This document shows positions 1 through 28,743 of a DNA stretch of 64,000 nt, one piece after another (the first letter of the stretch is position 1; the number at the start of each line of letters is the position of its first letter). The stretch is from the NCBI GenBank assembly GCA_963665295.1, contig OY762209.1:64001-128000 (forward strand), given 5' to 3'. The translations under genes and the position numbers were made by a program. The notes under the pieces were generated by a model. That model was not told the origin of the DNA and did not search any database. It worked only from the letters and a program-made list of their open reading frames with translations. The DNA is from Syntrophorhabdaceae bacterium. GTDB lineage: Bacteria; Desulfobacterota; Syntrophorhabdia; Syntrophorhabdales; Syntrophorhabdaceae.

Positions 1-1
1 G

Positions 2-6167: not shown

Positions 6168-6950
6168 CTACTCGTTTCTGTAAACCGGCTTTCTCCTCTC
6201 GAAGAACGCGGCCATGCCTTCCTTCATATTGTATGTACCCGTAAGTTTGGAAGAGTATGCGGATTCCAAAACGCCGCCTTCATCGAGCCCTGTCTCAAGG
6301 CCTTCAGCTGTAGCCCGCATGACACCCTCTACGGCCTGGTAATTCTTTTCGGCAATCTCCGTTGCAAGGGCTTTTGCCTTCTCCACGAGGTCGGAGGCAG
6401 GATACACGGCATTCACAAGACCGATATTGAGGGCCTCCTCACCTGAGACCCGCCGTCCCGTCAACATCAGTTCCAAGGCTTTGGGTTGACCGACAAGCCG
6501 GGGCAGCCTCTGCGTACCCCCCAGGCTCGGCATAGTGCCGAGGGTGATCTCCAACAGGCCAAGAGAAGCTTCGGGGCCGGCAAGACGCATATGGCACGAT
6601 AATGCCAATTCCAGACCGCCGCCGAAGCAGTTTCCATTGATCGCGGCAATAACAGGGCGGGGCAGTTTTTCGACTCGCCTGAAAAGGGCTTTCATATCGA
6701 GTGTCATCCGGGTATTGGCTTCTGCGGTTTCCAATGCATTAATGTCTTTGACATCAAGGCCGGAGATGAAGACCTTGGGCGAACCGGTGATGACGACAGC
6801 CCGGGCTTCCTTTTTTTCTACCAGGTTTATTACCATATTACATAGCTCGTGGTAGTAAGTAAGGGGCAATACATTATGGGGGGGTCGGTCGATTGTGATA
6901 AGGGCCACCCCGTTTTCCACGGAACATCTTAAAGCATCATTGTCTGACAT
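6168..6950 (-). CDS. Enoyl-CoA hydratase/isomerase family protein
   Basis: FISGLDV, GGGLELALSCH, GGTQRLPRLVG, AFFERRKP. Confidence 0.93.
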   Translation of the reverse strand: MSDNDALRCSVENGVALITIDRPPHNVLPLTYYHELCNMVINLVEKKEARAVVITGSPKVFISGLDVKDINALETAEANTRMTLDMKALFRRVEKLPRPVIAAINGNCFGGGLELALSCHMRLAGPEASLGLLEITLGTMPSLGGTQRLPRLVGQPKALELMLTGRRVSGEEALNIGLVNAVYPASDLVEKAKALATEIAEKNYQAVEGVMRATAEGLETGLDEGGVLESAYSSKLTGTYNMKEGMAAFFERRKPVYRNE

Positions 6951-7112
6951 GTTATTTCTCCTCTCCGGTAAATCTGCAACCGGGGCAACGCTCCCGGGAA
7001 ATCACGGTTACTGCTCCTAATGCCAACCTCCAAGGTTGAGGGACCACTCCGGACCAGCCGGAAGATATCTCCTGTCCGGTCCGGAGGGCTAGAGTAGACT
7101 CCTGGTTATACT

Positions 7113-8090
7113 TTAGAACGGCATGATCATGCGAAGCACGACTCGCGTGCCTTGTGCCCGCGCCTCAGCCTGACTTTCCGAGTAAGCCTTCAGGCTGAAG
7201 ATCGCCGTAGGCTTCCGCTCACCTTCACGAATATAGGTATAGGATATGCCCGGACCGATGGCGAAAATCCTCTCTTTGGAGTTCGGCACCGTGTTGCTGT
7301 CCAACTGGTCGGCAGTGGTCTGCTGCCCGTAATAGCCTACTACGCCGAACCGCAGTAAAGGCGTGATAAAATCAAGGGACTTTGAAAAGCTGTAATTGAA
7401 ACGCCACATTTCGCCTGCCTGCATGCTGTGAGTAGCGAAGTCCCGTGTAAGGGCCGGGTTCACATAGGAATTGTTCTTTGTATTCCAGAGGTAATGCTGC
7501 CTGGTGCTCAACTCGAAGCCTTTCGGCATGGTCAGCGTCATGGCAACAAAGGGTTCAAAGGTCCAGAAATTCGCACCTGCGTTGAATGCCGCGTCCTTGT
7601 CGTAAGAACCGATCGGGGCGTAGGTGTCGAACTCGCCGAACCAGTGAAAGGTCCAATCCTTCGCCAATGAATGCGAACGGCCCACGAAGGGACCAAAAAC
7701 CGCGTCACCTATCATACCGCTGTCCGCGGTAAGCCCCACATTCGAGCTGGCATTGAGACTGACCAGGGACCACTGGGTCTGCGCTCCCCAGATAAGGCCG
7801 CCGGGCAATGGTTTTGCCGCGGTATAGATGAGCTGCGGCGCAAAGGCAACCAGATTGAGCTTGTTCCTCCCCGGAATGTTGTTCCCGCTGCCGTCTTTAA
7901 AAGTGGTCGCGCTATAGGTTGCTACCTTAGGATTGAAGACAAAGCCCGGGCCCATGGATATAGCTGCCCCGTCCAGGAAGTCCGTGTATCCCCAGTTCAG
8001 GGAAGGATTCTGATTAAAGGCCATACCAGCCGAACACAGCATAGAGAAGAAAAAAACACACCCCAGGAATAGAACACATTTTTTTGTCAT
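7113..8090 (-). CDS. SphA / phenol-degradation MetA-pathway type outer-membrane channel
   Basis: Signal peptide, NWGYTDFLDG N-terminus, GIGD-like MIGD, APIGSYD, GYYGQQTTAD, FAIGPG, terminal Phe. Confidence 0.78.
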   Translation of the reverse strand: MTKKCVLFLGCVFFFSMLCSAGMAFNQNPSLNWGYTDFLDGAAISMGPGFVFNPKVATYSATTFKDGSGNNIPGRNKLNLVAFAPQLIYTAAKPLPGGLIWGAQTQWSLVSLNASSNVGLTADSGMIGDAVFGPFVGRSHSLAKDWTFHWFGEFDTYAPIGSYDKDAAFNAGANFWTFEPFVAMTLTMPKGFELSTRQHYLWNTKNNSYVNPALTRDFATHSMQAGEMWRFNYSFSKSLDFITPLLRFGVVGYYGQQTTADQLDSNTVPNSKERIFAIGPGISYTYIREGERKPTAIFSLKAYSESQAEARAQGTRVVLRMIMPF

Positions 8091-8117
8091 TTCCTTTTTC
8101 TCCTTTTATAGAAAGTA

Positions 8118-8135
8118 TGACTAACTAGTTAGTCA
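8118..8135. promoter_or_regulatory. Perfect 18-bp palindrome, putative TetR operator
   Basis: TGACTAACTAGTTAGTCA, 28 bp upstream of the channel gene start. Confidence 0.7.
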
Positions 8136-8272
8136 CCTTAAGCAGATAGTTACACCTCTCCCCCCTGACCCGCCACTCAAGGAGGCGGAGGGGCAGGGGG
8201 GAGATCTCGCTTTCAATGCTTCTGTCAGCTATCAAGTCAAACTTCACTGCCTCTATCCCTTTATCACGATAC

Positions 8273-10020
8273 TTATGCCTTGCCCCTCATTTTCTGGGTC
8301 GCACTTTCGTAAAGTTCAAAGGTCTCAGGGTCTATACTGACCTTGTACACATTTCGTGCCATCTCGATTGAAACAAGGCCGTTCTTCACGTCCCACCTTA
8401 CTGCTTCGGGGTCTCTCTCCTCGGGACGTCCTACGCCTCCGCCACCGCCGGCCTTGCAACAAAGGTGTCGCCCGCCTTCAGCTGCATGGAGATGTGGGGC
8501 TCCTTGATCTCCATCGTCTCGCCGTCCCGTATGATATAGGCTTTGTTCAGAAGGCTCGGGAAACCGCCCTGCTGACCTTTGCCCGTGGTATGCCACCCAT
8601 CACAGGGCCCCATGTTCGAAAAACACTCTATGGACTCGTTCACCGCTTCCCAATGTACGCCGGGGGCGCTTCGCCACTTTCCCGCGCCGTGTGAATCGGT
8701 CATGAACTCGTATTTTGTCACGCGCCACGGGAACCTCACCATCTCTTCTTCGGCGTCGGCCTTGGCAACGACACCGAGGGTGCTTCCCGTAGCAAAACAC
8801 TGATAACCGTCATTGCCATAGGTCGCCCCGGCCCCGGCATCGGGACAGAAGGTAATGTACACATACAACTCAGGCGGCATCGATCTCATATCCGGGCCGA
8901 TGAACATCAGCTCGAAGGGTCCGGGATGGGCTGCAACTGCCTTCTCCGGGAGGGCTTGTGATAGTGTATCCATCACGCACTCTATGACCTTGGTGCCGAC
9001 GAGCGAGGGTGCGGCAGCCACGAGGGCTCCGGGCCGTGCATTGCACACGGTGCCTTCTTTCGCGATTATGTGAAAAGGTTTCAAGCTTCCTTCATTGTGA
9101 TAAGCCGCGAGTTCGTGTCCGAAGAACATGAAAGCCGCGGCCAGCGACATGCTCAGGGTAACGGAATAGCCCATATTGGCGTAGCCTTTAACCTGTGGGT
9201 CACTCTCCGAGAAATCAAAGGTCGCCTCGTCGCCCTTAATGGTCAACGTACACCTGACTGTCACGGGAGCCCCCATCCGGGCGCCGTCGTCATCGGTCAG
9301 CGCTTCCGCGTAATAGGTCCCATCGGGCCACTTTGCGATCTGCGCGCGCACCGCTTTTTCCGTACGATTGATCATTTCGTCGATGCAGGCATAGAGTGTT
9401 TCCGTGCCGTATCTCTTAAGAACGTCGATGACCCTCTGCTCCGCCAATGTGGTGCTTCCGATAAGAGACCGGATCTCCCGGCCCATCATCTCGGGCAAAC
9501 GGTTGTTGGCAAGGATGAAATTGAGCACATCCTGTCTGTATTCGCCCCGCTCCATGACCTTTATGGGCGGGATATTAAGGCCTTCGGCAATAGAGTCGAA
9601 AGCCAGGTAATAGGCCCCGGGCTGAGAGCCGCCGTTATCCGGTACGTGGGTGCCCATGGCGGTCCAGAACACCAGTTCATCCTCGAAGAAGATGGGCCGC
9701 ACGAAGACCCAGTCGGAAAGGTGGACGGCCCCGGCTGCGAAAGGACTGTTAGTCAGGAACACATCACCAGGATAGATATTTCCCTCGAATTGTTTCTGCA
9801 CTGCCTTTATCTGAAAGGTACTCGAGAGCAGACGGCACGGAAAACCTTCGGGAATTGCTATGGCTTGAGCCCTGGCATCCCATATTCCGTAGGCCAGGTC
9901 GTGAAGGGTACATGCCAGTACATTGGTTGCCGTCCTTTCGATATGTTGACGCATCTCCCTGCAGATCCTCTGCAGGGCATGCCACGTTGTCGCTATGGTA
10001 ATCGGATCAGTCTGTACCAT
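8273..10020 (-). pseudogene. Hydantoinase B/oxoprolinase family subunit with a single-base frameshift near 8453 (or sequencing error)
   Basis: AVHLSD, HVPDNGG, EGLNIPP, SHGAGKWR motifs; the conserved GGGGGVGRPEERDPEAVRWDV tail lies in the adjacent frame (ORF 8273-8596). Confidence 0.8.
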
Positions 10021-10022
10021 GG

Positions 10023-12092
10023 TTATATCCTCCTCACAATAAAATCGCCATACTCGTCGACCGTGCACTGCCACCCTTCAGGTATTACCGTCGTGGTCAA
10101 CGGGTGCTCTATAATCGCATTTCCTGAGATCACATTTCCTGCTTTCAATTTCTTCGCATCGTAGATGTTCGTCTCTTTATAGCTACCATTAAAGCAGCAT
10201 TCCCTCTTCGGTTTCTGTGCTCCCGAAGCGTCTGCCGTCCCGGTTTCTATCTTTTCCATCTTTATCTTCTGTCCCTTGGACTTGGCTATCAATCGCAGAT
10301 TCCTGATTTCCACGGGAACCCATGGCATGGAGAAAGTGTAGAGTTCCTGGTGTGTCTTATGGAACTCCGCAGTGAGCTTTTCAATGTCCTGAGCGGTGAT
10401 ATCCTCCTCAGGAAGGCTTACCTCAACCTCGTGATACTGTCCGGCGTAGCGAATATCCGCAGTCTTGATAAGGGTAAGGTCCTTTCTTGATACGTTCAAC
10501 ACTTCGAATTCTTTCAGGGCTTCCCCTATCATATCTTCATAGAGGTGATTGATGTCGCCCGGATTAGCCTTGGTTGTGGGGCAAATATAGGACCTCACAT
10601 AGTCTCGCCCGATATCGAGGGAGAACATGCTCCACGCGCTGAAGGTTGGGGCGAACCGGGGGATAACGACCTTCTTTATGTTGAGCAGGTCTGCGATAAA
10701 CATGGCGCAGAAGGCGGTGGATCCGCCGATCGCCAACAGGCTGAAATCCCTCACATCATAACCCTTCTTCGTTGATATCTCCGTGATACCGTCTGCCATA
10801 TTCGCATTGACCGTGGTAAACATGGCCTGCGCCGCTTCCTCTACACTCATCTTCAACGGGTCTGCAACCTTCTTTAATGCCGCCCTGGCTGCATCGACGT
10901 CCAGCGGCATTTTGCCGCCCCAGAATTCTTTGGCGGGAAGATACCCCAGGACTACCGCAGCATCAGCAACGGCAGGCTCCGTTCCGCCCTTTTTATAACA
11001 ACAGGGTCCCGGAAAGGCTCCGGCGCTCTGGGGACCGACCTGCAACAGACCGAGGGAGTTGATCCAGCCGATGCTTCCGCCCCCTGCTCCTATGCTTGTG
11101 ACATCCACTGCTTTGATTCCGACCCTCTCCTCTCCAAGCCAATATCCTGAAGTCAAAGAGACGTCGCCTTTATAGATCAAGCTTGCATCGAAGGTCGTGC
11201 CACCCATGTCACCGCCGAGAAGATTGGGTTCCCCTATAAAGTTCCCGAGGAAAACACCACCTGCCGGTGCGGCGGACGGGCCGGAGCCGATCAGATAAAC
11301 CGGTTTCCGTTTCAGTGCGGTCACAGACTGTGCAAGCTGGTTTGCCTGGATGATGAAGAGCTGGCCCTTAAACCCATGGACGTTCAGGCCTTTCTCAAGG
11401 GCGGTGGTGTATCTGGCCACGACAGGACCGACACACGCGCTCACAACGGCGGTGCTTGCCCTCTCATACTCACCCATGGTGGGAAGTATATCGGCCGAGT
11501 AGGTAACGAACACATCGTCGCCCAGGAATTCCCGGCAAAGCTCGGCGGTCGTCCTTTCATTCTCCGGATTGGCGTAGGAGTTGATAAAACATATGGCTAC
11601 CGCCTCCACCTTTTCCTTCTTCATTTTTTCAATGATGACCTTCAGCTCTCCTCTGTTGATGGATTTGCTGACGGTGCCGTCGAAGCGTGTTTCTTCTTCC
11701 ATTACGAACCTCAGGTACCGTGGTACTATCGGGTCGTAAGGGGGGATAAGGGCTTCATACATCGATTTTGTTTCAATCTTGTTTGCCCGGCGCATCTCAA
11801 TAATATCCCTGAAGCCCTTCGTGGTGATCAATGCTGTCTTCGCCAGGTTTCTGGTGACGACAGCATTGGTAGCCACGGTGCAACCATGGACCAGCAATTC
11901 AACCTGGCTCACGAATTTTTCAAAAGGCAGGCCGTAACCGAGGGCAGCCTCGCCCATGGCATCCATAACGCCCTGCTCGAACTGACCATCTTTGGGAGTA
12001 CTCGGCGCCTTGAATTGACGAAGGTTTCCCTGTTCATCCGAAACCACGCAGTCCGTAAACGTGCCCCCTATATCAACGCAGACTTTGTACAT
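10023..12092 (-). CDS. Hydantoinase A/oxoprolinase family, ATP-binding subunit
   Basis: VDIGGTFTD, SGPSAA, DMGGTTFD, SIGAGGGSI, GPQSAGAFPGP, RYAGQYHE. Confidence 0.95.
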   Translation of the reverse strand: MYKVCVDIGGTFTDCVVSDEQGNLRQFKAPSTPKDGQFEQGVMDAMGEAALGYGLPFEKFVSQVELLVHGCTVATNAVVTRNLAKTALITTKGFRDIIEMRRANKIETKSMYEALIPPYDPIVPRYLRFVMEEETRFDGTVSKSINRGELKVIIEKMKKEKVEAVAICFINSYANPENERTTAELCREFLGDDVFVTYSADILPTMGEYERASTAVVSACVGPVVARYTTALEKGLNVHGFKGQLFIIQANQLAQSVTALKRKPVYLIGSGPSAAPAGGVFLGNFIGEPNLLGGDMGGTTFDASLIYKGDVSLTSGYWLGEERVGIKAVDVTSIGAGGGSIGWINSLGLLQVGPQSAGAFPGPCCYKKGGTEPAVADAAVVLGYLPAKEFWGGKMPLDVDAARAALKKVADPLKMSVEEAAQAMFTTVNANMADGITEISTKKGYDVRDFSLLAIGGSTAFCAMFIADLLNIKKVVIPRFAPTFSAWSMFSLDIGRDYVRSYICPTTKANPGDINHLYEDMIGEALKEFEVLNVSRKDLTLIKTADIRYAGQYHEVEVSLPEEDITAQDIEKLTAEFHKTHQELYTFSMPWVPVEIRNLRLIAKSKGQKIKMEKIETGTADASGAQKPKRECCFNGSYKETNIYDAKKLKAGNVISGNAIIEHPLTTTVIPEGWQCTVDEYGDFIVRRI

Positions 12093-13550: not shown

Positions 13551-14789
13551 CTATTCCGCCATGAGCAAGGGATGAGCAATCATCATATCCTTGCTGGGGA
13601 TTGAGTTGAGAATCTGAACACCCTTGTCGGTCACCACGAGCATCTCTTCCACCTTGATCCTGCCCAGGCTCGGATCGATAGGATCCAAAGCCTCAACAGC
13701 CATGGTCATACCCTTTTCATAGGTTTGAGGATGATCCAACGACCAAAGCCTGTTGGTCACAGGATATTCATAAAGGCTTAAGCCCAGGCCGTGGCCCATG
13801 TCGTCGCACCATGCGGCCTCTTCAGACGTGAAACCTTTCTGTTCAGCCGATTCCCAAAGTCTCGCTACCTCAGCCGTGGTGACGCCGGGCTTGATGGCAT
13901 CCAGGACCCTGTAGAGCCGGTCATTCATTCTTTTGTACTTCTCCTTCATCTTATCTGTCGGTTTTTGTCCCACCACGGCATTACGGTAGAAACAGGTGTT
14001 ATATCCCATGTAGGTGCAACGGACAAAGTCGACCGTTACCACGTCTCCCACTCGTACAATCTTATCGGTAACCTGAGCGGGACCACCGGAACTTACAATC
14101 ACCATCCATATATCTTCCGAACCGGCTCTGTACATGGCATCGTTTGCCACTGCCACCAAGTCCCTGTCCCGAACGCCCGGCTTTAACGCATCGTACAAAG
14201 CGCACCAGCCCACTTCCGCTATGGCCACGGCCATCCTCAGGCAGTTGATTTCATCGTCTGTCTTAACGGCCCGTGCTTCAAGCATCACCGACATTGCGCT
14301 CACAGTCTCCAGCCCGGCTTCTTTCAATGCCAGCCGGCCCGGTTCGTCAACGCTGTCAATACCTATCTTCTCTTTTTCCAAACCCCGTTCTTTTAACTCT
14401 CTCTTTATTTGTTCCGCGAATTTCTTTGCCGAATCCCAGACCGCATCAGGGCCACAGGCCTGGTTCGCCCAGTGAAAAGACTGCCTGATGTTTTCAGGCT
14501 TTATCCAGGGGTGTATTCCCGCGAGGGTGCCGTGAGATTCATAAAGGACAGGGTCATGACCTTCAGTCACAAGGGTGTATCTGCTCTGATCGATGAAATC
14601 CAGACCCCTGCCGCCTGTAGCATACCGAATGTTCTCAGGTCGGGTGAGCACACATGCCGCAATACCGTGCTTTTTCAACGCGGCACGGGCCTTGGCCAGT
14701 CTTTCCTCCCTCATGCGGCTAAAATTGATTCCTTCAGTCCAGTCTGCCCCACTCACCCCAAACGTGAGCTTCGGTGCTGCCTCTATCAT
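13551..14789 (-). CDS. M24 (Xaa-Pro peptidase/creatinase) family hydrolase
   Basis: Creatinase-like N-domain, ARAVKT, GHGLGL, KVEEMLVVT. Confidence 0.88.
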   Translation of the reverse strand: MIEAAPKLTFGVSGADWTEGINFSRMREERLAKARAALKKHGIAACVLTRPENIRYATGGRGLDFIDQSRYTLVTEGHDPVLYESHGTLAGIHPWIKPENIRQSFHWANQACGPDAVWDSAKKFAEQIKRELKERGLEKEKIGIDSVDEPGRLALKEAGLETVSAMSVMLEARAVKTDDEINCLRMAVAIAEVGWCALYDALKPGVRDRDLVAVANDAMYRAGSEDIWMVIVSSGGPAQVTDKIVRVGDVVTVDFVRCTYMGYNTCFYRNAVVGQKPTDKMKEKYKRMNDRLYRVLDAIKPGVTTAEVARLWESAEQKGFTSEEAAWCDDMGHGLGLSLYEYPVTNRLWSLDHPQTYEKGMTMAVEALDPIDPSLGRIKVEEMLVVTDKGVQILNSIPSKDMMIAHPLLMAE

Positions 14790-18199: not shown

Positions 18200-18218
18200 T
18201 CGCACACCTCCCGAATAA

Positions 18219-19397: not shown

Positions 19398-19456
19398 AGC
19401 AATCTCCTCTAAGAGATAATCTCTGACTCAACCTGGTTGAGTCAGAGTTACTCGAA

Positions 19457-20664: not shown

Positions 20665-21090
20665 TCAATTTGAGACAGGCCTAAACTTAAAGCCCACGAC
20701 ATCGTTGCCGTTATCATCGACAAACAGGCTCTCTATCACCAGGTCCATGTCCATATCGATCTTCAACTTCGCGGGGTCGGGCTCCGTTATGTAGCACATT
20801 ACCCTCACTCCATCTACCTCCACCGAGCCTACCCCGTATGGAACCGGCCCTTTGTATCCTTCGGGCACGGGATTGTTTACATTGCTGAAGGAATACAATT
20901 TTCCCCTCGGGCTGAGCAGCAACTCCGCAGCCTCGCCGCCGCAGTTTGCGCACCACGGCTGCTTCGGAAAAGTAACCTCGCCACATGTTTTACATTTGCT
21001 GCCTATAAGGTGAGGCTTCTCCGACGCTGACTTCGGGATGGTGAATAAGCCCTCTCCTACGTAAATCTTCTCTTTACCTTCACTCGACAT
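20665..21090 (-). CDS. Zn-ribbon/OB-fold DUF35 protein (thiolase partner)
   Basis: CKTCG..FP...CANCG, GKLYSFS, PVPY, FKFRP. Confidence 0.9.
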   Translation of the reverse strand: MSSEGKEKIYVGEGLFTIPKSASEKPHLIGSKCKTCGEVTFPKQPWCANCGGEAAELLLSPRGKLYSFSNVNNPVPEGYKGPVPYGVGSVEVDGVRVMCYITEPDPAKLKIDMDMDLVIESLFVDDNGNDVVGFKFRPVSN

Positions 21091-21139
21091 ACTGCACACC
21101 TCCTCTTTTGACCTCATTCCTGCGCTACTTATCTCTCGC

Positions 21140-22129
21140 TTACTCCGTCATCGCTTTTATCTTTTCAGTGAAGGCCGGTACAAAGGCCTTCCAGTCCCCC
21201 ACCACGCCGTAGTGGGCAAACTTGAAAATATTGGCCTCGGGGTCCTGGTTGATTGCGATCAGGGTTTTGGCTCCGGAACATCCTGTCATGTGCTGCGTTG
21301 AGCCGGAGATTGCCACCGCGATATACAGGTCCGGGGCTATGATTTTGCCTGTTATGCCCACCAGCCGGTTAGTGGGATACCAATTCTGGTCAACAGCCGG
21401 ACGACTGGCCCCCACCGCTCCTTTCAGGGCCTTTGCCAGCGCCTCGAGGTCATGGAAACCCTCCGCGCCGCCGATGCCTCTCCCGCCCGAGACCACTATG
21501 CCTGCTTCCTCGAGCTTTACGCCTGCCACTTCTTCCACCACCTTTTCCAGCAGCCTGGTCCTCACCGCCGCCGCATCGATACCGGCATCAACGGTGATTA
21601 CTTCGCCCTGCCGTGCATCATCCGGTTCCAGCGCTGCCATGGCCTTGCTTCGGATGGTGACGATCTGGGGGTCTATATCCGTGGTGATCACCTGCTTGGC
21701 GTTGCCGCCGTAAACCGGCTTCGTTTGCAGCAGACGCCCGCCGTCAATGGCGAGGTCCAGGCAATCCGAAGTGGCCACCGTACCCAGGCGAAATGCCAGC
21801 CGCCCCGCGAGATCGCGACCGATGTCCGTCTGGCCCATGATGAGTATTTGGGTGGATGCCTGTTCCACCAGCTTCTGCATCACCGCCACATAAGGGTCCG
21901 ACTGATAGTCGCTGAACAGAACATCGTCCACCACAAAGACCTTGTCGGCGCCATAGCGGATCGCTTCCTTTGCTATGTCGCCGACCTTATTCCCGACCAC
22001 GAGCGCCACCAGCGATTGACCCAGATTGTCGGCAAGCTTCCGGCCGATTCCGAGACCTTCGGTGGATACGGGGGCTAGTTTGTCCCCCTTTGTTTCACAA
22101 AAAACACTAACATTTTTATATTCAGCCAT
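21140..22129 (-). CDS. etfA: Electron transfer flavoprotein alpha subunit
   Basis: VVSGGRG, VGASRPAVD, VGITGK, LYIAVAISG, AINQDPEANIF. Confidence 0.95.
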   Translation of the reverse strand: MAEYKNVSVFCETKGDKLAPVSTEGLGIGRKLADNLGQSLVALVVGNKVGDIAKEAIRYGADKVFVVDDVLFSDYQSDPYVAVMQKLVEQASTQILIMGQTDIGRDLAGRLAFRLGTVATSDCLDLAIDGGRLLQTKPVYGGNAKQVITTDIDPQIVTIRSKAMAALEPDDARQGEVITVDAGIDAAAVRTRLLEKVVEEVAGVKLEEAGIVVSGGRGIGGAEGFHDLEALAKALKGAVGASRPAVDQNWYPTNRLVGITGKIIAPDLYIAVAISGSTQHMTGCSGAKTLIAINQDPEANIFKFAHYGVVGDWKAFVPAFTEKIKAMTE

Positions 22130-22169: not shown

Positions 22170-22958
22170 TTAGAATAACTTCGCGGCACGAAGCCTCTCA
22201 GTCAGGTTCTCCGCCATCTCCTCGGGAGACTCTCCCTTGATCAATTCGCAATGAGCTTCCGTAACTTCCTGATAGAGTCTCACCATTTTGGATTTTCGCG
22301 GGACCGGGGCGTCCATTCCGATATCAGTCGGCGTATAGACAGTGGGCTTCATCTTCTTCGCGGCCATAATACCCTTCATCGTCGGAAAACGCACCTCGCC
22401 GATTTCATTGCTCACCGTGATCACGGCGGGCAGGGGGACGGTGACAACCTCGTAACCATCGGTGATTACCCGTTGCACCCTGGCCTCGCCGGCGCCGATA
22501 TCGATCTGTTTGGCAAGGGTCACGCAGGGCAATCCGAGGGTTTCGGCAATGCCCGGACCGGTCTGTGCGCCGTTCGTATCGGATGCCTCACGGCCGGTAA
22601 GTATCAGGTCGTATTCGCCTAACTTCTTGATGGCCAGGGATAGTCCGTGGACCGTGCCAAAGGCGTCCATGTCCGCAAAGGCGTCATCTTCCATGAGGAT
22701 CAACTCGTCGGCGCCCATGGCCAGGGTCTTCTTCACCACATTTGCCACCATGTCCGTTCCCATGGTGATCACGGTTACTTTGCCTCCTTGGGCGGCCTTG
22801 AGTCTCAAGGCCCCTTCCAGGGCGTACTCTCCGTATGGGTCAAGCACCGGCGGGCTGCCGTCCGTGTTCAACCCTTTTTTCGTTGCTTCATCGATTTTGA
22901 AGACGGTGCTCGGTGCCTCGGGGTCAATGACCTGTTTCACACACACAACAATGTTCAT
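22170..22958 (-). CDS. etfB: Electron transfer flavoprotein beta subunit
   Basis: MNIVVCVKQV, ALEGALRLK, GREASD, LPAVITV. Confidence 0.95.
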   Translation of the reverse strand: MNIVVCVKQVIDPEAPSTVFKIDEATKKGLNTDGSPPVLDPYGEYALEGALRLKAAQGGKVTVITMGTDMVANVVKKTLAMGADELILMEDDAFADMDAFGTVHGLSLAIKKLGEYDLILTGREASDTNGAQTGPGIAETLGLPCVTLAKQIDIGAGEARVQRVITDGYEVVTVPLPAVITVSNEIGEVRFPTMKGIMAAKKMKPTVYTPTDIGMDAPVPRKSKMVRLYQEVTEAHCELIKGESPEEMAENLTERLRAAKLF

Positions 22959-23028
22959 AACGCAGGCTCCTTCTCGTATGAAGTGTCGTGGCCCATCCAT
23001 CTTTCCGGGATGGGTGGGCCACGGCGTA

Positions 23029-24489
23029 CTAGGCTTTTATGTTGTACTTTTTCCAGTTCTCCCTGACTTTCTTCATGGTTGCATCGTCCGGGTAGGCCAG
23101 TGGAGCAAATCTTTCACCGAACCATTCGTCCGTCCTCGGCCAATCTATGGGCTTCGTGCAGTCGAAGAGCACGCGGTCGCACTTCTTCACTGCCTCGTGG
23201 ACGCGGTCCTTGGGGTGTACGGCAGGGTCCAGGGGGGATATCCATCCCGGGAACTTTATGATGTCTCTTTCCGCGTTCAGCCGGTACCCTATGGCCCACA
23301 TCACCTTGTTCAAATCAAAAATGTCGATATCCTTGTCGAAGACGAAGACGTTCTTTCCTATCATCACCGATGACATGGAACTCCAGATATTGGCCGCTAC
23401 CTGATGGACCTGTCCCACATAGCTGTTGTCGATCTGGACGAACACGTTCGACCATGCCGTGCTGGGGTCCACATTGACTGCCGTCACGCCCTGCATTCTC
23501 TCTTCCAGAAGGTCCCGCATGGAAGCCGAGTGGCCGATGGACTCGATGTGGTGGTCTTCATTGATGGGCACGCCTTCCAGGGTTCCCTGCAGGATGGGAT
23601 CGTTTCTGTGGGTGATGCACGTTACGTTGAACACGGGACGGGTGTGAGGCACGCTGCAGTAGTAACCCGTATATTCGCCAAAAGGTCCTTCCAGCATGAA
23701 GCTGTCTTTATTTGTGTCGAGATATCCTTCATAAACGATCTCCGCCGAGGCCGGCACCAAAAGATCGTTGGTCTCACACTTCACCAATTCCACGGGCTCG
23801 CCCAGAAGACCACCCATTACATCGTACTCACAGGTACCGATGCCCTGGTGAGAACAGGCCACCGCGGGGAGTATAGGGTTCCAGCCGTTCGCCACGGCGA
23901 TGGGTACATTCTCGCCTTTCTTGCTGTAGCTCCTCCAATGTAACCAGGCATGCTGGCCTACGGTGAAGGTGATGCCCAACTGTTTCTTGTTGTGGATTGC
24001 ACGTCTGTAAAGACCGACGTTGATCCAGTCGGAGTCGCGGTCTTTCGTGACTACGCCGTCGAAAGTCCCTATGTAGCGGTGACCGTCCCTGTCGTGCCAG
24101 AAGGGAGCGGGAAACTGGAACATGTCAACATCCTCTTCCTTTATGATGTTCTCTTTTACCGGACCTGTGGCGACGATTTTCGGTTTGACCCGTTTCTTTG
24201 ATCTTTCCCTCCAGATGTCGATCAACTCCCTGTAGGGAGTCTCTTTGGGAAGGCCGAGCATTAAAGCGATTCGAGAAAAACTGGCCAGGGCTCCGGTGAA
24301 GAACTTACGGCCAACGGTATTCTCGTGATCCTTGATGTTCTCAAAGAGAAGTGCGGGGCCTCCCCGGTCAAAAGTCTCCTGCGTGATACCGCCGATCTCG
24401 AGGTTCCAGTCGACTTTCTCCTTTATACGCGCCACTTCACCCTGTTCTTCAAGTTCCTTGATCCACTCCCTCAAATCCTTTATTGCCAT
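23029..24489 (-). CDS. UbiD family prFMN-dependent (de)carboxylase
   Basis: VDWNLEI, GPALLFENI, DGHRYI, NVGLYR, AEIVYEG, EGPFGEYTGYY, SPLDP. Confidence 0.95.
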   Translation of the reverse strand: MAIKDLREWIKELEEQGEVARIKEKVDWNLEIGGITQETFDRGGPALLFENIKDHENTVGRKFFTGALASFSRIALMLGLPKETPYRELIDIWRERSKKRVKPKIVATGPVKENIIKEEDVDMFQFPAPFWHDRDGHRYIGTFDGVVTKDRDSDWINVGLYRRAIHNKKQLGITFTVGQHAWLHWRSYSKKGENVPIAVANGWNPILPAVACSHQGIGTCEYDVMGGLLGEPVELVKCETNDLLVPASAEIVYEGYLDTNKDSFMLEGPFGEYTGYYCSVPHTRPVFNVTCITHRNDPILQGTLEGVPINEDHHIESIGHSASMRDLLEERMQGVTAVNVDPSTAWSNVFVQIDNSYVGQVHQVAANIWSSMSSVMIGKNVFVFDKDIDIFDLNKVMWAIGYRLNAERDIIKFPGWISPLDPAVHPKDRVHEAVKKCDRVLFDCTKPIDWPRTDEWFGERFAPLAYPDDATMKKVRENWKKYNIKA

Positions 24490-24539
24490 AGTTATCTCCT
24501 TTCATCGCAGATATCTTCGCTTCTGCGGACGGTACTCTG

Positions 24540-24597
24540 TTATTGAGACATCGGCCTTCCTTTATCGCTCGCCTGGCCATCGAGGAAGCTCTCACAT
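24540..24597 (-). pseudogene. 3'-end relic of a TetR gene
   Basis: Minus strand TATGTGAGA...GCGAGCGATAAAGGAAGGCCGATGTCTCAATAA matches the end of TetR 27047 (TATGTGAGA...GCGAGCGATAAAGGAAGGACGAAGCCTCAGTAA). Confidence 0.7.
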
Positions 24598-24758
24598 ACC
24601 GTACGGTTATTATCTAACTCGTTTCTCATAAAGGTGTCAAGTTTTTTTTTGAATTTCGCCATATTTTTAATTTAGTCTATTACTTCAATGTGTTATATGT
24701 TTCACGTTGTGTATGAGCGACGACCTTATTTTTTTCCTAATAAACCGAACGGTTATTT
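24597..24758 (-). promoter_or_regulatory. ubiD-cluster promoter (TTGACA) with two TetR-type operators
   Basis: TACCGTACGGTTATTA 24597-24612, TTGACA 24640-24635, AACCGAACGGTTATTT 24743-24758; AT-rich region. Confidence 0.65.
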
Positions 24759-25001
24759 TCATAGTATACAGCAGGGCGCACGATGCAGGCGAAGGAGGGT
24801 GAAATTTGAAGTATTTTTATATATTACGAGTTCAAGACGACAGGCGTCCCCCTGTAATTGACATCCAGGGGGAGGAAGAGCCTGCTTCCACGGCAGCAGG
24901 GTATGTGATTCAGGACTTTTCTTTTTGAGTAGGGGCCGGTTCTCTTCGGCGGTCCCTTTTCAGCGCTTTCCGGGATTCTTCCCTGTACGGGGGCGGCCGG
25001 T

Positions 25002-26030
25002 TTATTTGCCTCGGTTTCCGCCAAGCCTGGGGAAAAGCGCCCGCCCGTTGCGACTCAGGACAGCCTTCCTTTCCTCTTCGCCGATCTCTTCGCACGTGCG
25101 GACCGCCTTGAGGCACTCCGTCGGAACCGCGCTCCCTGCGAAAGGATAGTCCGTGCCTGCCATGACGCGTGATGCGCCGACCTGCTTTACAAGATAGGAC
25201 AAGGCATTGGGACTTACAATGGCGGTGTCGTAGTAAAAGTGACCCAAGTACTCATCGAAGCCCTTCGGAGCAGCTTCCGCGAAGGATTTCCACACCGACG
25301 GCGCCATCCTTCCAAGCCGATAGGAAAGATAGGGCAAGGTGCCGCCCCCATGGGAAAGAATGAAGGTAATGTCGGGATGGCGTTCCAACACACCCGAACA
25401 GACGAGGCTGAACGCCGCACGGGTCGTGTCGAAGGGCGCATCCATTACGGCGGCGGGGATGCCGAACTGCACGCCGGGCGGGTCCGTGGGGTGAACATGG
25501 ACGACCGTTTTCCTTGCATTCAGAGCCCTGTACACCTCTTCAAACGATGCGTCCCCAAGGTACTTGAGACCATAATTGGACATAAGCTCGACCCCGTCGA
25601 GTTTCAGGATATCGAGGGCATAGTCAAGTTCCCGCAAGACCCCTTCCGTATCAATAAGGGGCGGCATGGTTGCGAAGGCGCCATACCGGTCAGGGTGGGC
25701 TTCGACCATCCTGGCGACGAGTTCATTACACAACCGGGCAAGAGCGCGCCCATGTTCCGTTCCGGGAACGTTTGCCGCGGGAGTACTGAAGGATACAATC
25801 CCAACCTGCACGCCGAGTTTGTCCATGAGTTCCATGTCTTTTTCGATCGACCATGCCGGGAAGGAGACTCCGATGCTGCTCGTGACTCCCAGGCCGGAAA
25901 GGGCTTCAAGATACTCGGCTGGTACTACGTGATGGTGCACGTCGATGGCGCCTTCGATCAGCGCCGTCTGTTTGCTTCCCACCGCCCTGCTGCCCGGGTT
26001 CAGTTCAGAGTCGGGTTTCATATATCTCAT
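25002..26030 (-). CDS. Amidohydrolase-2 family protein (non-oxidative aromatic decarboxylase-like)
   Basis: IDVHHH, VHPT, ILSHGGGTLPYL, YYDTA, GTDYPF. Confidence 0.88.
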   Translation of the reverse strand: MRYMKPDSELNPGSRAVGSKQTALIEGAIDVHHHVVPAEYLEALSGLGVTSSIGVSFPAWSIEKDMELMDKLGVQVGIVSFSTPAANVPGTEHGRALARLCNELVARMVEAHPDRYGAFATMPPLIDTEGVLRELDYALDILKLDGVELMSNYGLKYLGDASFEEVYRALNARKTVVHVHPTDPPGVQFGIPAAVMDAPFDTTRAAFSLVCSGVLERHPDITFILSHGGGTLPYLSYRLGRMAPSVWKSFAEAAPKGFDEYLGHFYYDTAIVSPNALSYLVKQVGASRVMAGTDYPFAGSAVPTECLKAVRTCEEIGEEERKAVLSRNGRALFPRLGGNRGK

Positions 26031-26062: not shown

Positions 26063-26935
26063 CTATCCGGGATCATCGGGGGTCGCCAGGTTCGTGGCAA
26101 TGCTCAGGAGACGACCTCCGGCTCCCATGTCAAGGATCTCCACGAGACTCAGGACCGTTTCGCTTGTTTTTCGAAGAAGCGTTGTCTTCGTCTGAAAGGG
26201 ACCGATCTCGCCCAGGCTCAGGAAATGAATGGCGAGGTCGGTGGTCGCAAAGGACCTTCCCGCAGCATGGCCCGCCATGGTCTGTCCAGCCAGGTCGGCG
26301 AGAAGGGCAATAACGCCTCCGTGGAGGGCGTTGAAACTGTTTCGCACATAGTCACTCATATCAACCTGGACCAAAGCCTCCGCCTCGTTCAGGACCTTCA
26401 GTCCGACTTTGTCATAGAATGGTTGAATCAGGCCCGCATCGTCCGGGTGGGCATCGGGCGTCCCCTTCGCTACAGGGTCGACCTTGAGCAACGGCGAACC
26501 TTCCCTGGGCGAAAATCGCGTGAAGTCTATCATTGCCTTGGCTATGGTGGTGAAACCGCCCTGTTCACGGGGCGCGTGACGAATATCTGCCATGACGAGG
26601 ACCGTATTTCGTCCCGTTCTTCTCAGTTCACCTTCAGCTTCGATGTACCCCGACAGGGCCCGCCCTGAGGATTGAACGGACAGATGGGTGGTCGCGGCCC
26701 AATCCGGATGGAAGGCTGTAAGCGCCAATCCTCCGCCCAGAACATCCATAAGAGCGGCCAATACGCCCGCGAGCATGGCGCCGTTACAGGCGCGGACTGC
26801 GCTCTGAACAGGCGCGCGAAGGGTAGCCTTGTCCGGCCCCTGGAATGAGATGGAAGGCGAGAGGTCGCGTAACATTCGACTCAGCGGCGGGTAGTAACCC
26901 CTCGCGATAGCCGTGTCCTTTGTTTTTTCTTTCAT
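26063..26935 (-). CDS. PaaI-family double-hotdog thioesterase
   Basis: Two hotdog repeats: NGAMLAGVLAALMD and NALHGGVIALLAD; TTDLAIHFL. Confidence 0.82.
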   Translation of the reverse strand: MKEKTKDTAIARGYYPPLSRMLRDLSPSISFQGPDKATLRAPVQSAVRACNGAMLAGVLAALMDVLGGGLALTAFHPDWAATTHLSVQSSGRALSGYIEAEGELRRTGRNTVLVMADIRHAPREQGGFTTIAKAMIDFTRFSPREGSPLLKVDPVAKGTPDAHPDDAGLIQPFYDKVGLKVLNEAEALVQVDMSDYVRNSFNALHGGVIALLADLAGQTMAGHAAGRSFATTDLAIHFLSLGEIGPFQTKTTLLRKTSETVLSLVEILDMGAGGRLLSIATNLATPDDPG

Positions 26936-27046
26936 ATTTCCGCCCCGTGCGGCGCACAAGGCGCTAAGGAACCCCTCGGGCCCATCCCGTGAATGGACGC
27001 CGAAGTCGGTCCAAAAGCACTCTTCTCTTCCGCCGACAGCGCCCTC

Positions 27047-27667
27047 TTACTGAGGCTTCGTCCTTCCTTTATCGCTCGCGAGGCCGTAAATGAAAGTTTT
27101 CCGGAAGGTTCTCACATATTCCTCGGCATCGATCAGGTTCCTGTTAAGAACCCATTGATGGAGCAGTCCGTCATGGAGAGCCATGAAAGTCAAAGCGGCG
27201 AGATCCGGGTCCGTTTTCTTGTCCACCAGACCCTGGCTGATCCCCTGGCGTACGATGCCGCCGATAAACCTCTGGTAGTCGTTGTAGACGGCCTTCAGCA
27301 TGGGCTCGAAATCAATATCCGCCTTCAGTTCCGTGGTGAGGAATGTCAGGAATACACAAAGATTCTGGTGCTCCGATGCGAACTGGGCGCTAAAAGTTAT
27401 GCACCGGTGCAGCTTGTCAAGGGCATCGCCTTCGCCATCATTTGCGAACCGGATCATCTCGTCGATGTATCTAACCTTATATCGCTCTAAAATCCGGAGC
27501 AAGAGTTCGCCCTTGCTCTTGAAGTGAGCATACAAAGAGCCTTTGGTTAGCCCAACCTTGTTCACGATATCAGTGATGGACGTACCGTGATACCCTTTAC
27601 GCACGAAAAGCTCCAGGGCCGCCAGGACAATTTTCCGGTCTGTCTCTATACCGTCAGCTCTTTTCAT
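27047..27667 (-). CDS. TetR/AcrR family transcriptional regulator
   Basis: ALELFVRKGYHGTSITDIVNKVGLTKGSLYAHFKSK HTH. Confidence 0.95.
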   Translation of the reverse strand: MKRADGIETDRKIVLAALELFVRKGYHGTSITDIVNKVGLTKGSLYAHFKSKGELLLRILERYKVRYIDEMIRFANDGEGDALDKLHRCITFSAQFASEHQNLCVFLTFLTTELKADIDFEPMLKAVYNDYQRFIGGIVRQGISQGLVDKKTDPDLAALTFMALHDGLLHQWVLNRNLIDAEEYVRTFRKTFIYGLASDKGRTKPQ

Positions 27668-27687
27668 CTAAAACCACCTCCCCATAA

Positions 27688-27818
27688 TACTATACGCTTA
27701 TTACTTTAGCTTGTTTGCCATAGACCTGTCAAGTTGCTCGATTACGTCACACTTTTTTACTGATTAAATTCCGTTGGTTAGGCTTCGTGATCTCTTTTTA
27801 CATACCGAACGGTCATTT
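27688..27818 (-). promoter_or_regulatory. TetR promoter with two operators
   Basis: TACTATACGCTTATTA 27688-27703, TTGACA 27732-27727, TACCGAACGGTCATTT 27803-27818. Confidence 0.6.
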
Positions 27819-27979
27819 TCTTATTGACTATCGGGAATCAGTAATATAACATGGAATAGAGTCATACCGATACCCTGAAACCTGTTTTTTCCATTGAAAA
27901 AAGGGTGGACAGGCAGCGCGAAACGACGGGCAGGGTAATGGGATGTCGGCCACGAGGCCGTAAATAATGAGGAGGAGCA

Positions 27980-28153
27980 ATGGCTACGGTGGATATTTGC
28001 ATCTATGACAAGTTCAAGGACATGGTGGAAGACCAGGGAGGCCTGGAGATCATCCGCGACCTCGCACCAGGCACGGATCAATACCGTTCGGTATACCACG
28101 TCGCGAAGGGCGGCAAAGAGCGCATCCGTAAGGTCGCGGGAGGTGTGGAATGA
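27980..28153 (+). CDS. Small protein resembling phenylphosphate carboxylase gamma subunit (57 aa, possibly truncated)
   Basis: GAGGAGGAG RBS; MATVDICIYDKFKDMVEDQGGLEIIRDLAPGTDQYRSVYHVAKGGKERIRKVAGGVE; ATGA overlap with ubiX. Confidence 0.65.
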   Translation: MATVDICIYDKFKDMVEDQGGLEIIRDLAPGTDQYRSVYHVAKGGKERIRKVAGGVE

Positions 28154-28743
28154 GCGGCATTATTGTCGGCATATCAGGGGCCACGGGGCTGATCTACGGC
28201 GTGCGCGCACTGGAGGCTTTGCGCGCCTGCGGTATGGAGAGCCATCTCGTGGTAACGCAATCGGCCGCGCGAATCCTCGCGATGGAGACGGAATACACCA
28301 TCGATTACGTAAGGTCCCTCGCTACCTGTGTCCACGACGTGGACAACGTGGGCGCCTCTCTCGCGAGCGGCTCCTTTAAAGTCGACGGCATGGCCATCAT
28401 GCCGTGCTCGATAAAATCCCTCTCCGCCGTGGCCAACTCCTTTGACTATAATCTCCTCGTCAGAGCCGCAGACGTGACCCTCAAGGAAAGAAGAAAGCTC
28501 GTTCTCCTGGTGAGGGAAACGCCCCTCCACGAAGGCCACCTCGAGCTCATGACCAGGGTCACCCGCATGGGCGGGATCATCCTGCCCCCTGCCCCCGCTT
28601 TCTACCACATGCCGAAGACCATCGACGACATCGTGAACCAGACGGTAGGCAAAGTGCTCGACCAGTTCGGGATCGACGCTCATCTCTTCAGGCGGTGGGG
28701 GCAGGCGGATGATACGCGTATCGCCAGGGCAGGGATAAAATGA
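28150..28743 (+). CDS. ubiX: UbiX flavin prenyltransferase
   Basis: GISGATG, ASGSF, PCSIKSLS, RAADVTLKERRKLVL, RETPL, PAFYH. Confidence 0.96.
   Translation: MSGIIVGISGATGLIYGVRALEALRACGMESHLVVTQSAARILAMETEYTIDYVRSLATCVHDVDNVGASLASGSFKVDGMAIMPCSIKSLSAVANSFDYNLLVRAADVTLKERRKLVLLVRETPLHEGHLELMTRVTRMGGIILPPAPAFYHMPKTIDDIVNQTVGKVLDQFGIDAHLFRRWGQADDTRIARAGIK

Follow-up and report, generated by a model that had tools for sequence, protein, structure and literature searches.

The subject of this analysis is a gene island in a 64,000-nucleotide stretch of the genome of a Syntrophorhabdaceae bacterium (assembly GCA_963665295.1, contig OY762209.1, positions 64,001 to 128,000), here called the window, in which genes for a UbiD-type (de)carboxylase, a hydantoinase A/B pair (HyuAB), a flavoprotein of the old yellow enzyme family (OYE) and many CoA-dependent enzymes lie together. 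Judged from its sequence, the island is an anaerobic aromatic-type catabolic gene set with several atypical enzymes, matching no described pathway. The reading we prefer, tentatively and with less than even confidence, is that it degrades a hydrophobic, most likely N-heterocyclic, aromatic carboxylic acid via CoA thioesters without oxygen and is horizontally shared. This reading draws on the gene families, on co-conservation in a matrix of orthologs, on a recurring trio of OYE and HyuAB genes and on the enrichment of a putative operator. Whatever the substrate, the altered thiolase, the altered M24-fold protein, the truncated Fe-S OYE and the uncharacterised UbiD clade point to undescribed reactions, and the island is a concrete, testable candidate common to unrelated anaerobes, namely the window's genome, a Desulfosporosinus-labelled metagenome-assembled genome (MAG) and an Aromatoleum MAG.

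Extent of the gene island

The open reading frames (ORFs) were profiled with Pfam and NCBIfam, and the nearest solved structures were ranked by PDB bit score. The minus strand between positions 6168 and 24489 holds 14 co-oriented ORFs, 13 of which fall in named families, and in the first scan 21 of the 23 window proteins submitted had a Pfam family match. A preliminary description of this DNA had proposed the 14-gene run, and both the run and its families are borne out by Pfam and NCBIfam, except for the small membrane ORF; so are the Amidohydro_2, hotdog, TetR and UbiX neighbours and the nearby Mo-hydroxylase (32592-36429). The run is real but was wrong as a unit boundary, as the unit extends left past the window start, into a locus here labelled L059, and right to the Mo-hydroxylase. 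The catabolic unit thereby spans about 40 kb and adds to the 14 genes the Mo-hydroxylase, UbiX, two enoyl-CoA hydratases (ECH), a 3-oxoacid CoA-transferase and two class III CoA-transferases (Table 1). Gaps within the 14 genes measure 13-112 bp, with exceptions of 267 bp between the CoA-transferase and the membrane ORF, 340 bp between HyuB and the outer-membrane channel and 162 bp between the channel and the crotonase.

Distribution among genomes and metagenomes

The gene set recurs in two other lineages, a MAG titled Desulfosporosinus sp. BRH_c37 (G429) and an Aromatoleum MAG (G041), with orthologs at 63-91% identity and with differing gene order and accessory genes; the MAG labels are those given by the records, and contig joins were inferred from overlapping gene fragments. 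With this clustering of orthologs in both genomes the gene set escapes a refutation that the preliminary description had named, a lack of co-conservation in any other genome. In G429 one contig (C161) starts with genes for 3-hydroxyacyl-CoA dehydrogenase (HCDH), ECH and a thiolase, followed by UbiD (91%), the DUF35 protein (80%), the island-type thiolase (87%), two acyl-CoA dehydrogenases (ACADs; 78%/78%), the M24-fold protein (77%), OYE (83%), a CoA-transferase (83%) and the start of a second OYE gene. A second contig (C186) opens inside this second OYE gene and continues with HyuA (83%), HyuB (81%), CoA-transferase A/B (73%/80%), two ECH (74% and 87%), two class III transferases side by side (69%/80%) and UbiX (49%), and a third carries the Mo large subunit (83%). 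At a contig end of G041 stand UbiD (75%), DUF1329 and MMPL-type uptake genes, ECH, TetR (55%), DUF35 (63%), thiolase (78%), ACADs (64%/63%), M24 (68%) and OYE (68%). Another G041 contig holds an OYE fragment, HyuA (68%), HyuB (74%), a CoA ligase, HCDH/ECH, a thiolase, an electron-transfer flavoprotein (ETF) pair with an FAD oxidoreductase and, on the same contig, UbiX (61%) beside a thioesterase and the medium, small and large Mo subunits (62%, 79% and 78%).

Identities of 68-87% for HyuA, the Mo large subunit, M24 and thiolase are confined to G429 and G041, in a matrix that also included the genomes G023, G035 and G430. These three have a UbiD ortholog (72%, 60% and 73%, respectively) without the rest, their best HyuA, Mo large subunit and thiolase matches being at most 46% identical and M24 having no match, and their ubiD is surrounded by CoA ligase, ACAD, Amidohydro_2 and ordinary beta-oxidation genes. 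The gene set that the preliminary description had treated as one unit is in this way co-conserved but made of separable sub-modules: UbiD stands by itself in three genomes, as does OYE-HyuAB at a second locus of the window's genome. Outside the three-lineage core are ETF, the outer-membrane channel, the last crotonase, the membrane ORF and the 4-hydroxybutyrate-type CoA-transferase. ETF is absent at this position in G429 and represented in G041 only by a 32-39% pair; the CoA-transferase was not found in the G041 loci examined and has its 83% ortholog in G429; the channel (7113-8090) and the membrane ORF had no match in related loci; and the crotonase at 6168-6950 had only paralog-level matches (36-43%) in both genomes. 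No ortholog of the metallo-beta-lactamase (MBL)-fold hydrolase (642-1706) was seen in related loci.

The M24 gene is a marker that is rare in sampled genomes and common in metagenomes. In the window's phylum, M24 homologs at E<=1e-60 occur in 10 of 400 other genomes, at no more than 53% identity, and in 0 of 11 of the same family; none of six contexts of these matches holds the cluster, the only further similarities being a 33% HyuA (L048) and a 30% EtfA (L047). No match at E<=1e-100 was found among 150 other genomes of the family of G041, and a plasmid collection gave no M24 match and no UbiD match above 36%. Among metagenome proteins there were 404 M24 homologs at E<=1e-40, the best 120 of them at least 55% identical, and 665 HyuA homologs at E<=1e-150. 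A metagenome scan for M24 gave 10 loci, of which 8 were compared (L019-L026); the cluster was present only in L019, which repeats the identities of L013 and is hence not independent, and the other seven have an M24 homolog of 38-43% and no other cluster gene. Homologs named after Desulfotignum balticum, a cultured sulfate reducer, were found for M24 (81%, P0135) and HyuA (72%, P0281, 637 aa partial, 'putative 5-oxoprolinase'). A fosmid was reportedly sequenced around benzoate-induced ETF genes of D. balticum in a 2009 study; the HyuA entry might stem from it, and the island might respond to benzoate. From this distribution, the island appears to be a block of sub-modules that has been passed on by horizontal transfer.

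Two further MAG contigs carry what appear to be rearranged or broken versions. L017 (4312-10673; contig titled Desulfotomaculum) has the 27047-27667 TetR gene at 85% and then only the first 45 ubiD codons (96%), followed by a class III transferase piece, an Amidohydro_3 gene adjoining the transferase as in the island, Amidohydro_2 fragments and ubiX matched in two pieces. L015 (10016-12178; contig titled Syntrophorhabdus) has only the last 95 ubiD codons (94%), then etfB/etfA (70%/75%). These may be assembly chimeras or real decay.

UbiD and its partner UbiX

UbiD contains the UbiD_N, UbiD and UbiD_C domains, passes the general model TIGR00148 (304.7, cut-off 244.85) and has a UbiX partner encoded nearby. 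It fails the equivalog models VdcC (289.6/650), PpcB (259/469), PpcA (247/565), mena_SCO4490 (251/496), BagN (214/1000) and UbiD (193/788), and it is assigned to the prenylated flavin mononucleotide (prFMN) (de)carboxylase family by the general model, the only one passed. Its LYR and EGPFGE stretches fit what we take to be the Glu-Arg-Glu catalytic motif. The best PDB matches are 7pda (252 bits) and PA0254/HudA (206); Fdc1/UbiD-type structures score 165-180 bits. According to the available part of its paper 7pda is PhdA, a phenazine-1-carboxylate decarboxylase, and HudA is a pyrrole-2-carboxylate decarboxylase as worded in the title of its paper. The phthaloyl-CoA decarboxylase system likewise combines two class III CoA-transferase genes with a UbiD enzyme and UbiX (PMC9516798, in part). 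It differs in that the Pcd structures 8oz5 and 8pmk score 70 bits against the island UbiD, the weakest of 40 PDB matches listed, and in that the island transferases lie 23 kb from ubiD.

HyuAB and the Fe-S OYE

HyuA and HyuB score higher against caprolactamase models (CapA 589.4, CapB 245.6; cut-off 1000) than against acetophenone carboxylase models (ApcC 290, ApcD 89; cut-off 1500), all below cut-off, and among structures 6yra (391 bits) and N-methylhydantoinase (371) stand before acetophenone carboxylase (253) and acetone carboxylase (227). The A/B architecture, the ATP motifs and the H-x2-D-x21-H metal motif are shared with CapAB, 5-oxoprolinase and N-methylhydantoinase. By eye and with no tool alignment, HyuA shows DIGGTFTD, DMGGT and GAFPGP, as in the CapAB motifs of PMC8453981, and HyuB the metal site D59, H118, D121 and H143 (H118-x2-D121-x21-H143) of the same paper. 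No gene for a gamma (or epsilon) subunit was seen beside hyuAB among the window ORFs, the gamma subunit being what separates acetone carboxylases from hydantoinase-type enzymes in the available part of PMC4959651. By its sequence HyuAB sits closer to ATP-dependent lactam hydrolases than to ketone carboxylases; of the two types named in the preliminary description, the former is favoured by both the NCBIfam and the PDB scores. CapAB differs in the score (589/246 for HyuAB versus a cut-off of 1000), and HyuAB is coupled always to a gene for an Fe-S OYE, in a CoA-dependent anaerobic cluster.

The OYE consists of an FMN domain and C381-x5-C387-x6-C394-x4-C399, with no FAD/NAD(P)H domain. 2-Naphthoyl-CoA reductase (6qkg) aligns with residues 7-421 (125 bits), and 2,4-dienoyl-CoA reductase and trimethylamine dehydrogenase align partially. 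An FMN barrel followed by a Cys-rich stretch is common to this OYE and the branch of 2-naphthoyl-CoA reductase and 2,4-dienoyl-CoA reductase, whereas the missing FAD/NAD(P)H domain and the C-x5-C-x6-C-x4-C spacing set it apart from 2-naphthoyl-CoA reductase. Without that domain the OYE must exchange electrons with a separate partner, for which ETF would be one candidate by analogy with the ETF-linked trimethylamine dehydrogenase. Its relatives are two copies in G429 (83-85%), the G041 ortholog (68%) and a paralog in the window's genome (79%). The order OYE-HyuA-HyuB recurs in G429, in G041 and at a second locus of the window's genome (C1:5302416-5309183; L064:16416-19000 and L065:868-4183) with OYE (79%), HyuA (89%), HyuB (81%) and an ordinary thiolase; before this smaller operon lie genes for a PAS histidine kinase/response regulator and a PAS-LuxR regulator, and after it come those of a formate dehydrogenase. 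Recurring in this manner at a second locus, OYE, HyuA and HyuB are thus predicted to be a functional trio.

Atypical thiolase, ACADs, M24-fold protein and CoA-transferases

The thiolase is nearest to the SCP2-thiolase 6hsj (227 bits) and to BbsB (7pxp, 218 bits), and the DUF35 protein has BbsA as its NCBIfam match (59 bits). As in BbsAB and SCP2-type systems, a DUF35 Zn-ribbon/OB gene lies beside an SCP2-type thiolase with its nucleophilic Cys (ETGCAAGS) kept. The difference is in the other catalytic motifs, in which GHP has become SEP (SCSEP, His to Glu) and HDCF/HDAF has become QDTD, identically in 3 of 3 orthologs. The adjacent ACADs probably form a heteromer, as predicted from their sequences, with pimC_large as the best NCBIfam match of ACAD1 (222 bits) and pimD_small (185) among those of ACAD2, all below cut-off. 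By eye, both are without the Glu of what we take to be the YEGT-type motif. The ACAD pair with its pimC/pimD-like matches and the ChsH2-type DUF35 recall steroid side-chain beta-oxidation. A likeness of ACAD2 to prolyl-carrier-protein dehydrogenases was rejected as a clue, for an unrelated ACAD of the window scores the same or higher (196, 189 bits).

M24 metallopeptidases have an Asp-Asp-His-Glu-Glu dinuclear metal site. The M24-fold protein has D254-C266-H333-E366-E381 instead, with Cys266 where prolidases carry the second metal-binding Asp and Tyr340 for the His of the HE motif. In these two replacements it departs from the metal site of prolidase/aminopeptidase P-type metallopeptidases. 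The site is invariant, apart from E381 (119/120), in 120/120 homologs of at least 55% identity, the best 120 of 404, and Cys266 and Tyr340 are kept in all 120. A reading of the island in terms of DddP/acryloyl-CoA reductase and dimethylsulfoniopropionate metabolism was dismissed, the generic best matches being far below NCBIfam cut-offs. For the class III transferases the only NCBIfam matches were sub-threshold ones to mesaconate, glutarate and formyl-CoA transferases. The 3-oxoacid CoA-transferase passes pcaI_scoA_fam (230.6, cut-off 128.5) and lies just under pcaJ_scoB_fam (239, cut-off 243.55).

The Mo enzyme

Among solved structures the Mo large subunit comes nearest to 4-hydroxybenzoyl-CoA reductase alpha (487 bits), versus CoxL (323), Qor (312) and nicotinate hydroxylase (257), and the three-subunit organisation is that of HcrABC. 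All three subunits are, in contrast to HcrABC, below their equivalog models (HcrA 719/994.55; HcrB 126.5/404.55, in two stretches; HcrC 202/257.8). An extra Fe-S insertion in the FAD subunit is typical of 4-hydroxybenzoyl-CoA reductase, whereas the island's FAD (medium) subunit has no Cys-rich insertion, with just two Cys in the relevant region. Large-subunit orthologs are at 83% (G429) and 78% (G041), and every paralog in five genomes is at most 43% identical.

Proposed route and its alternatives

From the observed genes, families, co-conservation and atypical active sites we infer a route, every step of which is conditional. UbiD/UbiX, perhaps also the ACMSD-type decarboxylase, would take off a ring carboxyl, and the Mo enzyme would hydroxylate the ring with water beside the nitrogen, giving an unsaturated lactam. 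The Fe-S OYE would reduce the lactam C=C, and HyuAB would open the saturated lactam at the expense of ATP. CoA-transferases would activate the resulting amino-aryl alkanoate; the ACAD pair, passing electrons to ETF, with the hydratases and DUF35/thiolase would then trim the side chain until a product of the (amino)benzoyl-CoA type is left, and the Cys-bearing M24 protein might make a further C-N or C-C cleavage. 3,4-Dihydro-2-quinolinone is an anaerobic metabolite of quinoline and would fit this scheme.

For an N-heterocyclic substrate speak the scores of HyuAB in favour of lactam hydrolases and the lack of a gamma-subunit gene nearby, the naming of PhdA and PA0254/HudA, the best solved relatives of UbiD, as N-heteroaromatic-acid enzymes, and the further C-N hydrolase-type genes, M24 and Amidohydro_3. 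Uptake genes for hydrophobic compounds, the Phenol_MetA_deg channel here and the DUF1329 and MMPL-type genes in G041, agree with a hydrophobic compound. Several findings weigh on the other side. The Mo large subunit is nearest to 4-hydroxybenzoyl-CoA reductase (487 bits) and not to quinoline or nicotinate hydroxylases (312/257), the lead of UbiD's best match over Fdc1/UbiD-type structures is modest (252 vs 165-180 bits), the OYE has a dearomatising aryl-CoA reductase as its best full-length solved relative, and the island encodes neither an aminotransferase nor a deaminase. The gene after HyuB is a 3-oxoacid CoA-transferase in G429 and a thiolase at the second locus of the window's genome, which suits ketone carboxylation too. 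The sub-modules differ in distribution, so they may not serve one substrate, and the catalytic residues of thiolase and M24 are altered, so their reactions are not readable from the families. A more specific version sees in the island the long-sought means of breaking down benzo-fused or other N-heteroaromatics (quinoline-, indole- or phenazine-type carboxylates, for example) without oxygen. It is rather unlikely to hold jointly in all its parts, these being prFMN decarboxylation, lactam formation by water-dependent Mo hydroxylation, reduction by a new ETF-/ferredoxin-linked Fe-S OYE, ATP-driven opening, and two new catalysts, one the Cys-containing M24 hydrolase and the other a His-less DUF35/thiolase, the latter cleaving a ring or side-chain C-C bond.

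In an unlikely alternative, the substrate is an alicyclic or aryl-alkyl enone or ketone, and HyuAB uses ATP to turn the ketone into a beta-keto acid by carboxylation. OYE would interconvert enone and ketone, the 3-oxoacid CoA-transferase would activate the beta-keto acid for cleavage by thiolase, the Mo enzyme would be an enone hydratase/dehydrogenase like MhyADH, and the PimCD-like ACADs would oxidise a dicarboxyl-CoA. HyuB followed by 3-oxoacid CoA-transferase A/B in G429, by thiolase at the second locus and by CoA ligase-HCDH/ECH-thiolase in G041 is in keeping with this, as are the ACAD matches to pimC_large (222 bits) and pimD_small (185 bits), the OYE NCBIfam matches, which include BaiCD (162 bits), and the hydration of enones by MhyADH, a Mo enzyme of the same superfamily (PMC3044224, in part). 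HyuA and HyuB reach, however, roughly double the score with lactam hydrolases that they do with carboxylases, and no gamma/epsilon subunit gene is nearby; MhyADH resembles CO dehydrogenases (same part of PMC3044224), whereas the large subunit here is nearest HcrA, and UbiD, M24 and the amidohydrolases are left without a role. The least probable of the alternatives, and a highly doubtful one, takes the substrate to be a polycyclic or substituted aromatic acid whose ring UbiD (de)carboxylates. At the CoA ester the HcrA-like Mo enzyme would take off a ring hydroxyl or introduce one, and the other enzymes would open the reduced ring by beta-oxidation-like steps. This reading would account for the full-length alignment of OYE with 2-naphthoyl-CoA reductase 6qkg, for the two OYE paralogs each in G429, G041 and the window's genome and for the Mo large subunit being nearest 4-hydroxybenzoyl-CoA reductase, and anaerobic degradation of polycyclic aromatic hydrocarbons begins with UbiD enzymes (PMC12016498, in part). 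Yet OYE has 432 aa and no FAD/NAD(P)H domain, against 714 aa for 6qkg, the Mo medium subunit has no HcrB-type insertion, the thn genes (benzoyl-CoA reductase-type reductase, MaoC hydratases and AtuA-like lyases in the same part of PMC12016498) were not found among the scanned ORFs, and HyuAB and M24 would have no role.

The island could also be a mosaic of unrelated small operons (UbiD/UbiX; OYE-HyuAB; thiolase-ACAD-M24; Mo enzyme; CoA-transferases) for different substrates, co-transferred as blocks, which is considered improbable. In G023, G035 and G430 UbiD orthologs of 60-73% lie beside other beta-oxidation genes and are unaccompanied by the remainder of the set, OYE-HyuAB stands alone at the second locus, gene order differs in all three lineages, and gaps of 267, 340 and 493 bp with three TetR genes suggest several transcription units. 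Against independent operons, HyuA, the Mo large subunit, M24 and thiolase are at matching identity levels within G429 and within G041 and jointly missing from the three other genomes, and M24 orthologs number 0/150 in the family of G041, with none above 53% in 400 genomes of the window's phylum. Chance is therefore an unlikely cause of their occurring together in unrelated hosts.

Relation to described pathways

The preferred N-heterocycle scheme would mirror, by analogy, the iaa pathway of Aromatoleum aromaticum, the closest analogue, which has the hydantoinase A/B-like IaaCE (PMC8453981, in part), the class III CoA-transferase IaaL, an acyl-CoA dehydrogenase and final steps that resemble beta-oxidation and yield 2-aminobenzoyl-CoA (PMC8360864, in part). 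The families of IaaCE and IaaL are present in the island, a likeness at family level only. The iaa pathway has the B12-dependent benzylmalonyl-CoA mutase IaaGH, whereas no mutase family was seen among the Pfam-scanned window ORFs, and in the passages of these papers seen the iaa pathway has no UbiD/UbiX, M24, OYE or DUF35/thiolase. The preliminary description had noted the lack of phenylphosphate synthase, the B12 mutase and benzylsuccinate synthase, and Pfam found no B12 mutase, glycyl-radical enzyme or phenylphosphate synthase family among the scanned window ORFs, some small ORFs being unscanned. It had also found no characterised pathway to match, in agreement with the full-text literature searched (subscription papers not covered), which holds no description of the gene set. 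Papers on isophthalate and on limonene describe no matching cluster, and a paper on a Geobacter aromatic island does not mention hydantoinase, oxoprolinase or UbiD. A search for genes of anaerobic N-heterocycle breakdown gave none beyond the iaa pathway, again with subscription papers not covered. To our knowledge, few of the genes by which N-heterocycles such as quinoline, indole and pyridines are degraded anaerobically have been identified.

Putative operator sequences

The palindrome TAACCGTWCGGT occurs in two exact copies upstream of ubiD (24598-24609 and 24744-24755), and a copy with a single mismatch sits between tetR and ubiX (27804-27815). Five matches in the window compare with 0.28 expected, and none of 100 shuffles reached five. 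This distribution fits a TetR operator, and a candidate TetR repressor that would bind the palindrome probably controls ubiD and ubiX. A TTGACA hexamer lies upstream of ubiD at 24640-24635. The 'operator-bearing promoter' of the preliminary description is upheld as to the enriched palindrome repeats but not as to the promoter, as the promoter scan called none there. The palindrome is not conserved in G429 or G041, with matches in 3 of 59 loci (L001, which is the window, L017 and L040), and the sigma-54 promoter pattern TGGCAC-N5-TTGCW had no match in the window. A further copy, CAACCGTACGGTCA (37174-37187, one mismatch per strand), lies inside a CecR-type TetR gene (36947-37624) next to the Mo genes. 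In the 59-bp thiolase/ACAD gap a perfect 12-bp stem with a 3-nt loop and a weak T-run (19421-19447, minus strand) might serve within the operon as an attenuator or in the processing or stability of the RNA.

Features of the window and neighbouring genes

Table 1. Genes and sites of the island and its surroundings, in window positions unless marked L059.
Feature	Position	Strand	Basis or remark
Amidohydro_3 gene, 513 aa	L059:14608-16149	+	beyond window start
Second class III CoA-transferase	L059:16193-17380		left of window; Pfam CoA_transf_3
Class III CoA-transferase, 3' part	1-748	-	full gene L059:17441-18748; Pfam CoA_transf_3
MBL-fold hydrolase	642-1706	-	Pfam Lactamase_B, 85.9 bits
3-Oxoacid CoA-transferase, subunits B; A	2134-2829; 2826-3575	-	Pfam CoA_trans
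Two enoyl-CoA hydratase/isomerase genes	3607-4338; 4348-5100	-	Pfam ECH_1
TetR-family regulator	5177-5674	-	Pfam TetR_N
Crotonase (enoyl-CoA hydratase family)	6168-6950	-	Pfam ECH_1, 203 bits
Outer-membrane channel, Phenol_MetA_deg	7113-8090	-	Pfam, 133 bits
HyuB	8431-10074	-	start may be 10020; Pfam hydantoinase B
HyuA	10023-12092	-	Pfam hydantoinase A/oxoprolinase type
OYE-family flavoprotein, 432 aa	12164-13462	-	Pfam Oxidored_FMN
M24-fold protein	13551-14789	-	Pfam Peptidase_M24 and Creatinase_N
Small membrane ORF, 153 aa, four-helix	14863-15324	-	hydrophobic translation
CoA-transferase, 4-hydroxybutyrate/acetyl-CoA hydrolase family	15592-16953	-	Pfam AcetylCoA_hydro type; PDB 3eh7, 231 bits
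ACAD2	17066-18205	-	Pfam acyl-CoA dehydrogenase
ACAD1	18219-19397	-	Pfam acyl-CoA dehydrogenase
SCP2-type thiolase, atypical	19457-20614	-	Pfam; PDB matches
DUF35 partner (zf-ChsH2 and OB_ChsH2_C)	20665-21117	-	Pfam
EtfA; EtfB	21140-22129; 22170-23000	-	Pfam ETF, ETF_alpha
UbiD	23029-24489	-	three UbiD Pfam domains
ubiD upstream region, palindromes and TTGACA	24490-25001	-	motif scans
Amidohydro_2, decarboxylase-type	25002-26030	-	Pfam
Hotdog-fold protein	26063-26959	-	Pfam
TetR regulator	27047-27667	-	Pfam
UbiX flavin prenyltransferase	28150-28743	+	NCBIfam PRK06029, 250 (cut-off 188)
sCache_2 protein	28786-29298	+	Pfam
Major facilitator superfamily (MFS) transporter	29400-30758	+	Pfam
Sigma-54 activator with GAF	30947-32524	+	Pfam
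Mo enzyme, xanthine-oxidase family, large subunit	32592-34970	-	Pfam
Mo enzyme, [2Fe-2S] small subunit	34973-35443	-	Pfam
Mo enzyme, FAD medium subunit	35533-36429	-	Pfam

The best PDB relatives of the Amidohydro_2 protein are the 5-carboxyvanillate decarboxylase LigW (89 bits) and ACMSD (83). The 153-aa membrane ORF had no Pfam match at E<=0.001 and merely E=0.32 for DUF2798; its nearest protein-atlas clusters are DUF2798 (score 0.92), and it is possibly DUF2798-like. Membership of the sCache_2, MFS and sigma-54 activator genes (28786-32524) in the unit is by position only. The 'PpcG-like ORF' of the preliminary description did not hold up, as the sole candidate (57 aa, 27980-28153) had no Pfam or NCBIfam match and no tblastn match in related loci, and an overlapping 92-aa ORF (27821-28099) appears non-coding. 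A 453-aa ORF without family at L059:14560-15921 (minus strand) was rejected as a gene, being the antisense frame of the 513-aa Amidohydro_3 gene; its 50% tblastn match to L017 stemmed from the true Amidohydro_3 gene on the opposite strand.

Outside the unit, 23 kb from ubiD, a thiolase, ECH and HCDH trio (47315-50241) may share the regulon; its thiolase is 77% identical to the one directly upstream of ubiD in G429, and the HCDH 58%. Close to the trio, two genes encode acyl-CoA ligases (45568-47211; 55391-56962) and one a 517-aa ACAD (56976-58529). The 1037-aa protein encoded at 52019-55132, with DUF7948, SBBP beta-propeller repeats and InlB-type B-repeats, falls in a region of higher G+C content (0.60 versus about 0.55) and is unrelated to the catabolic genes.

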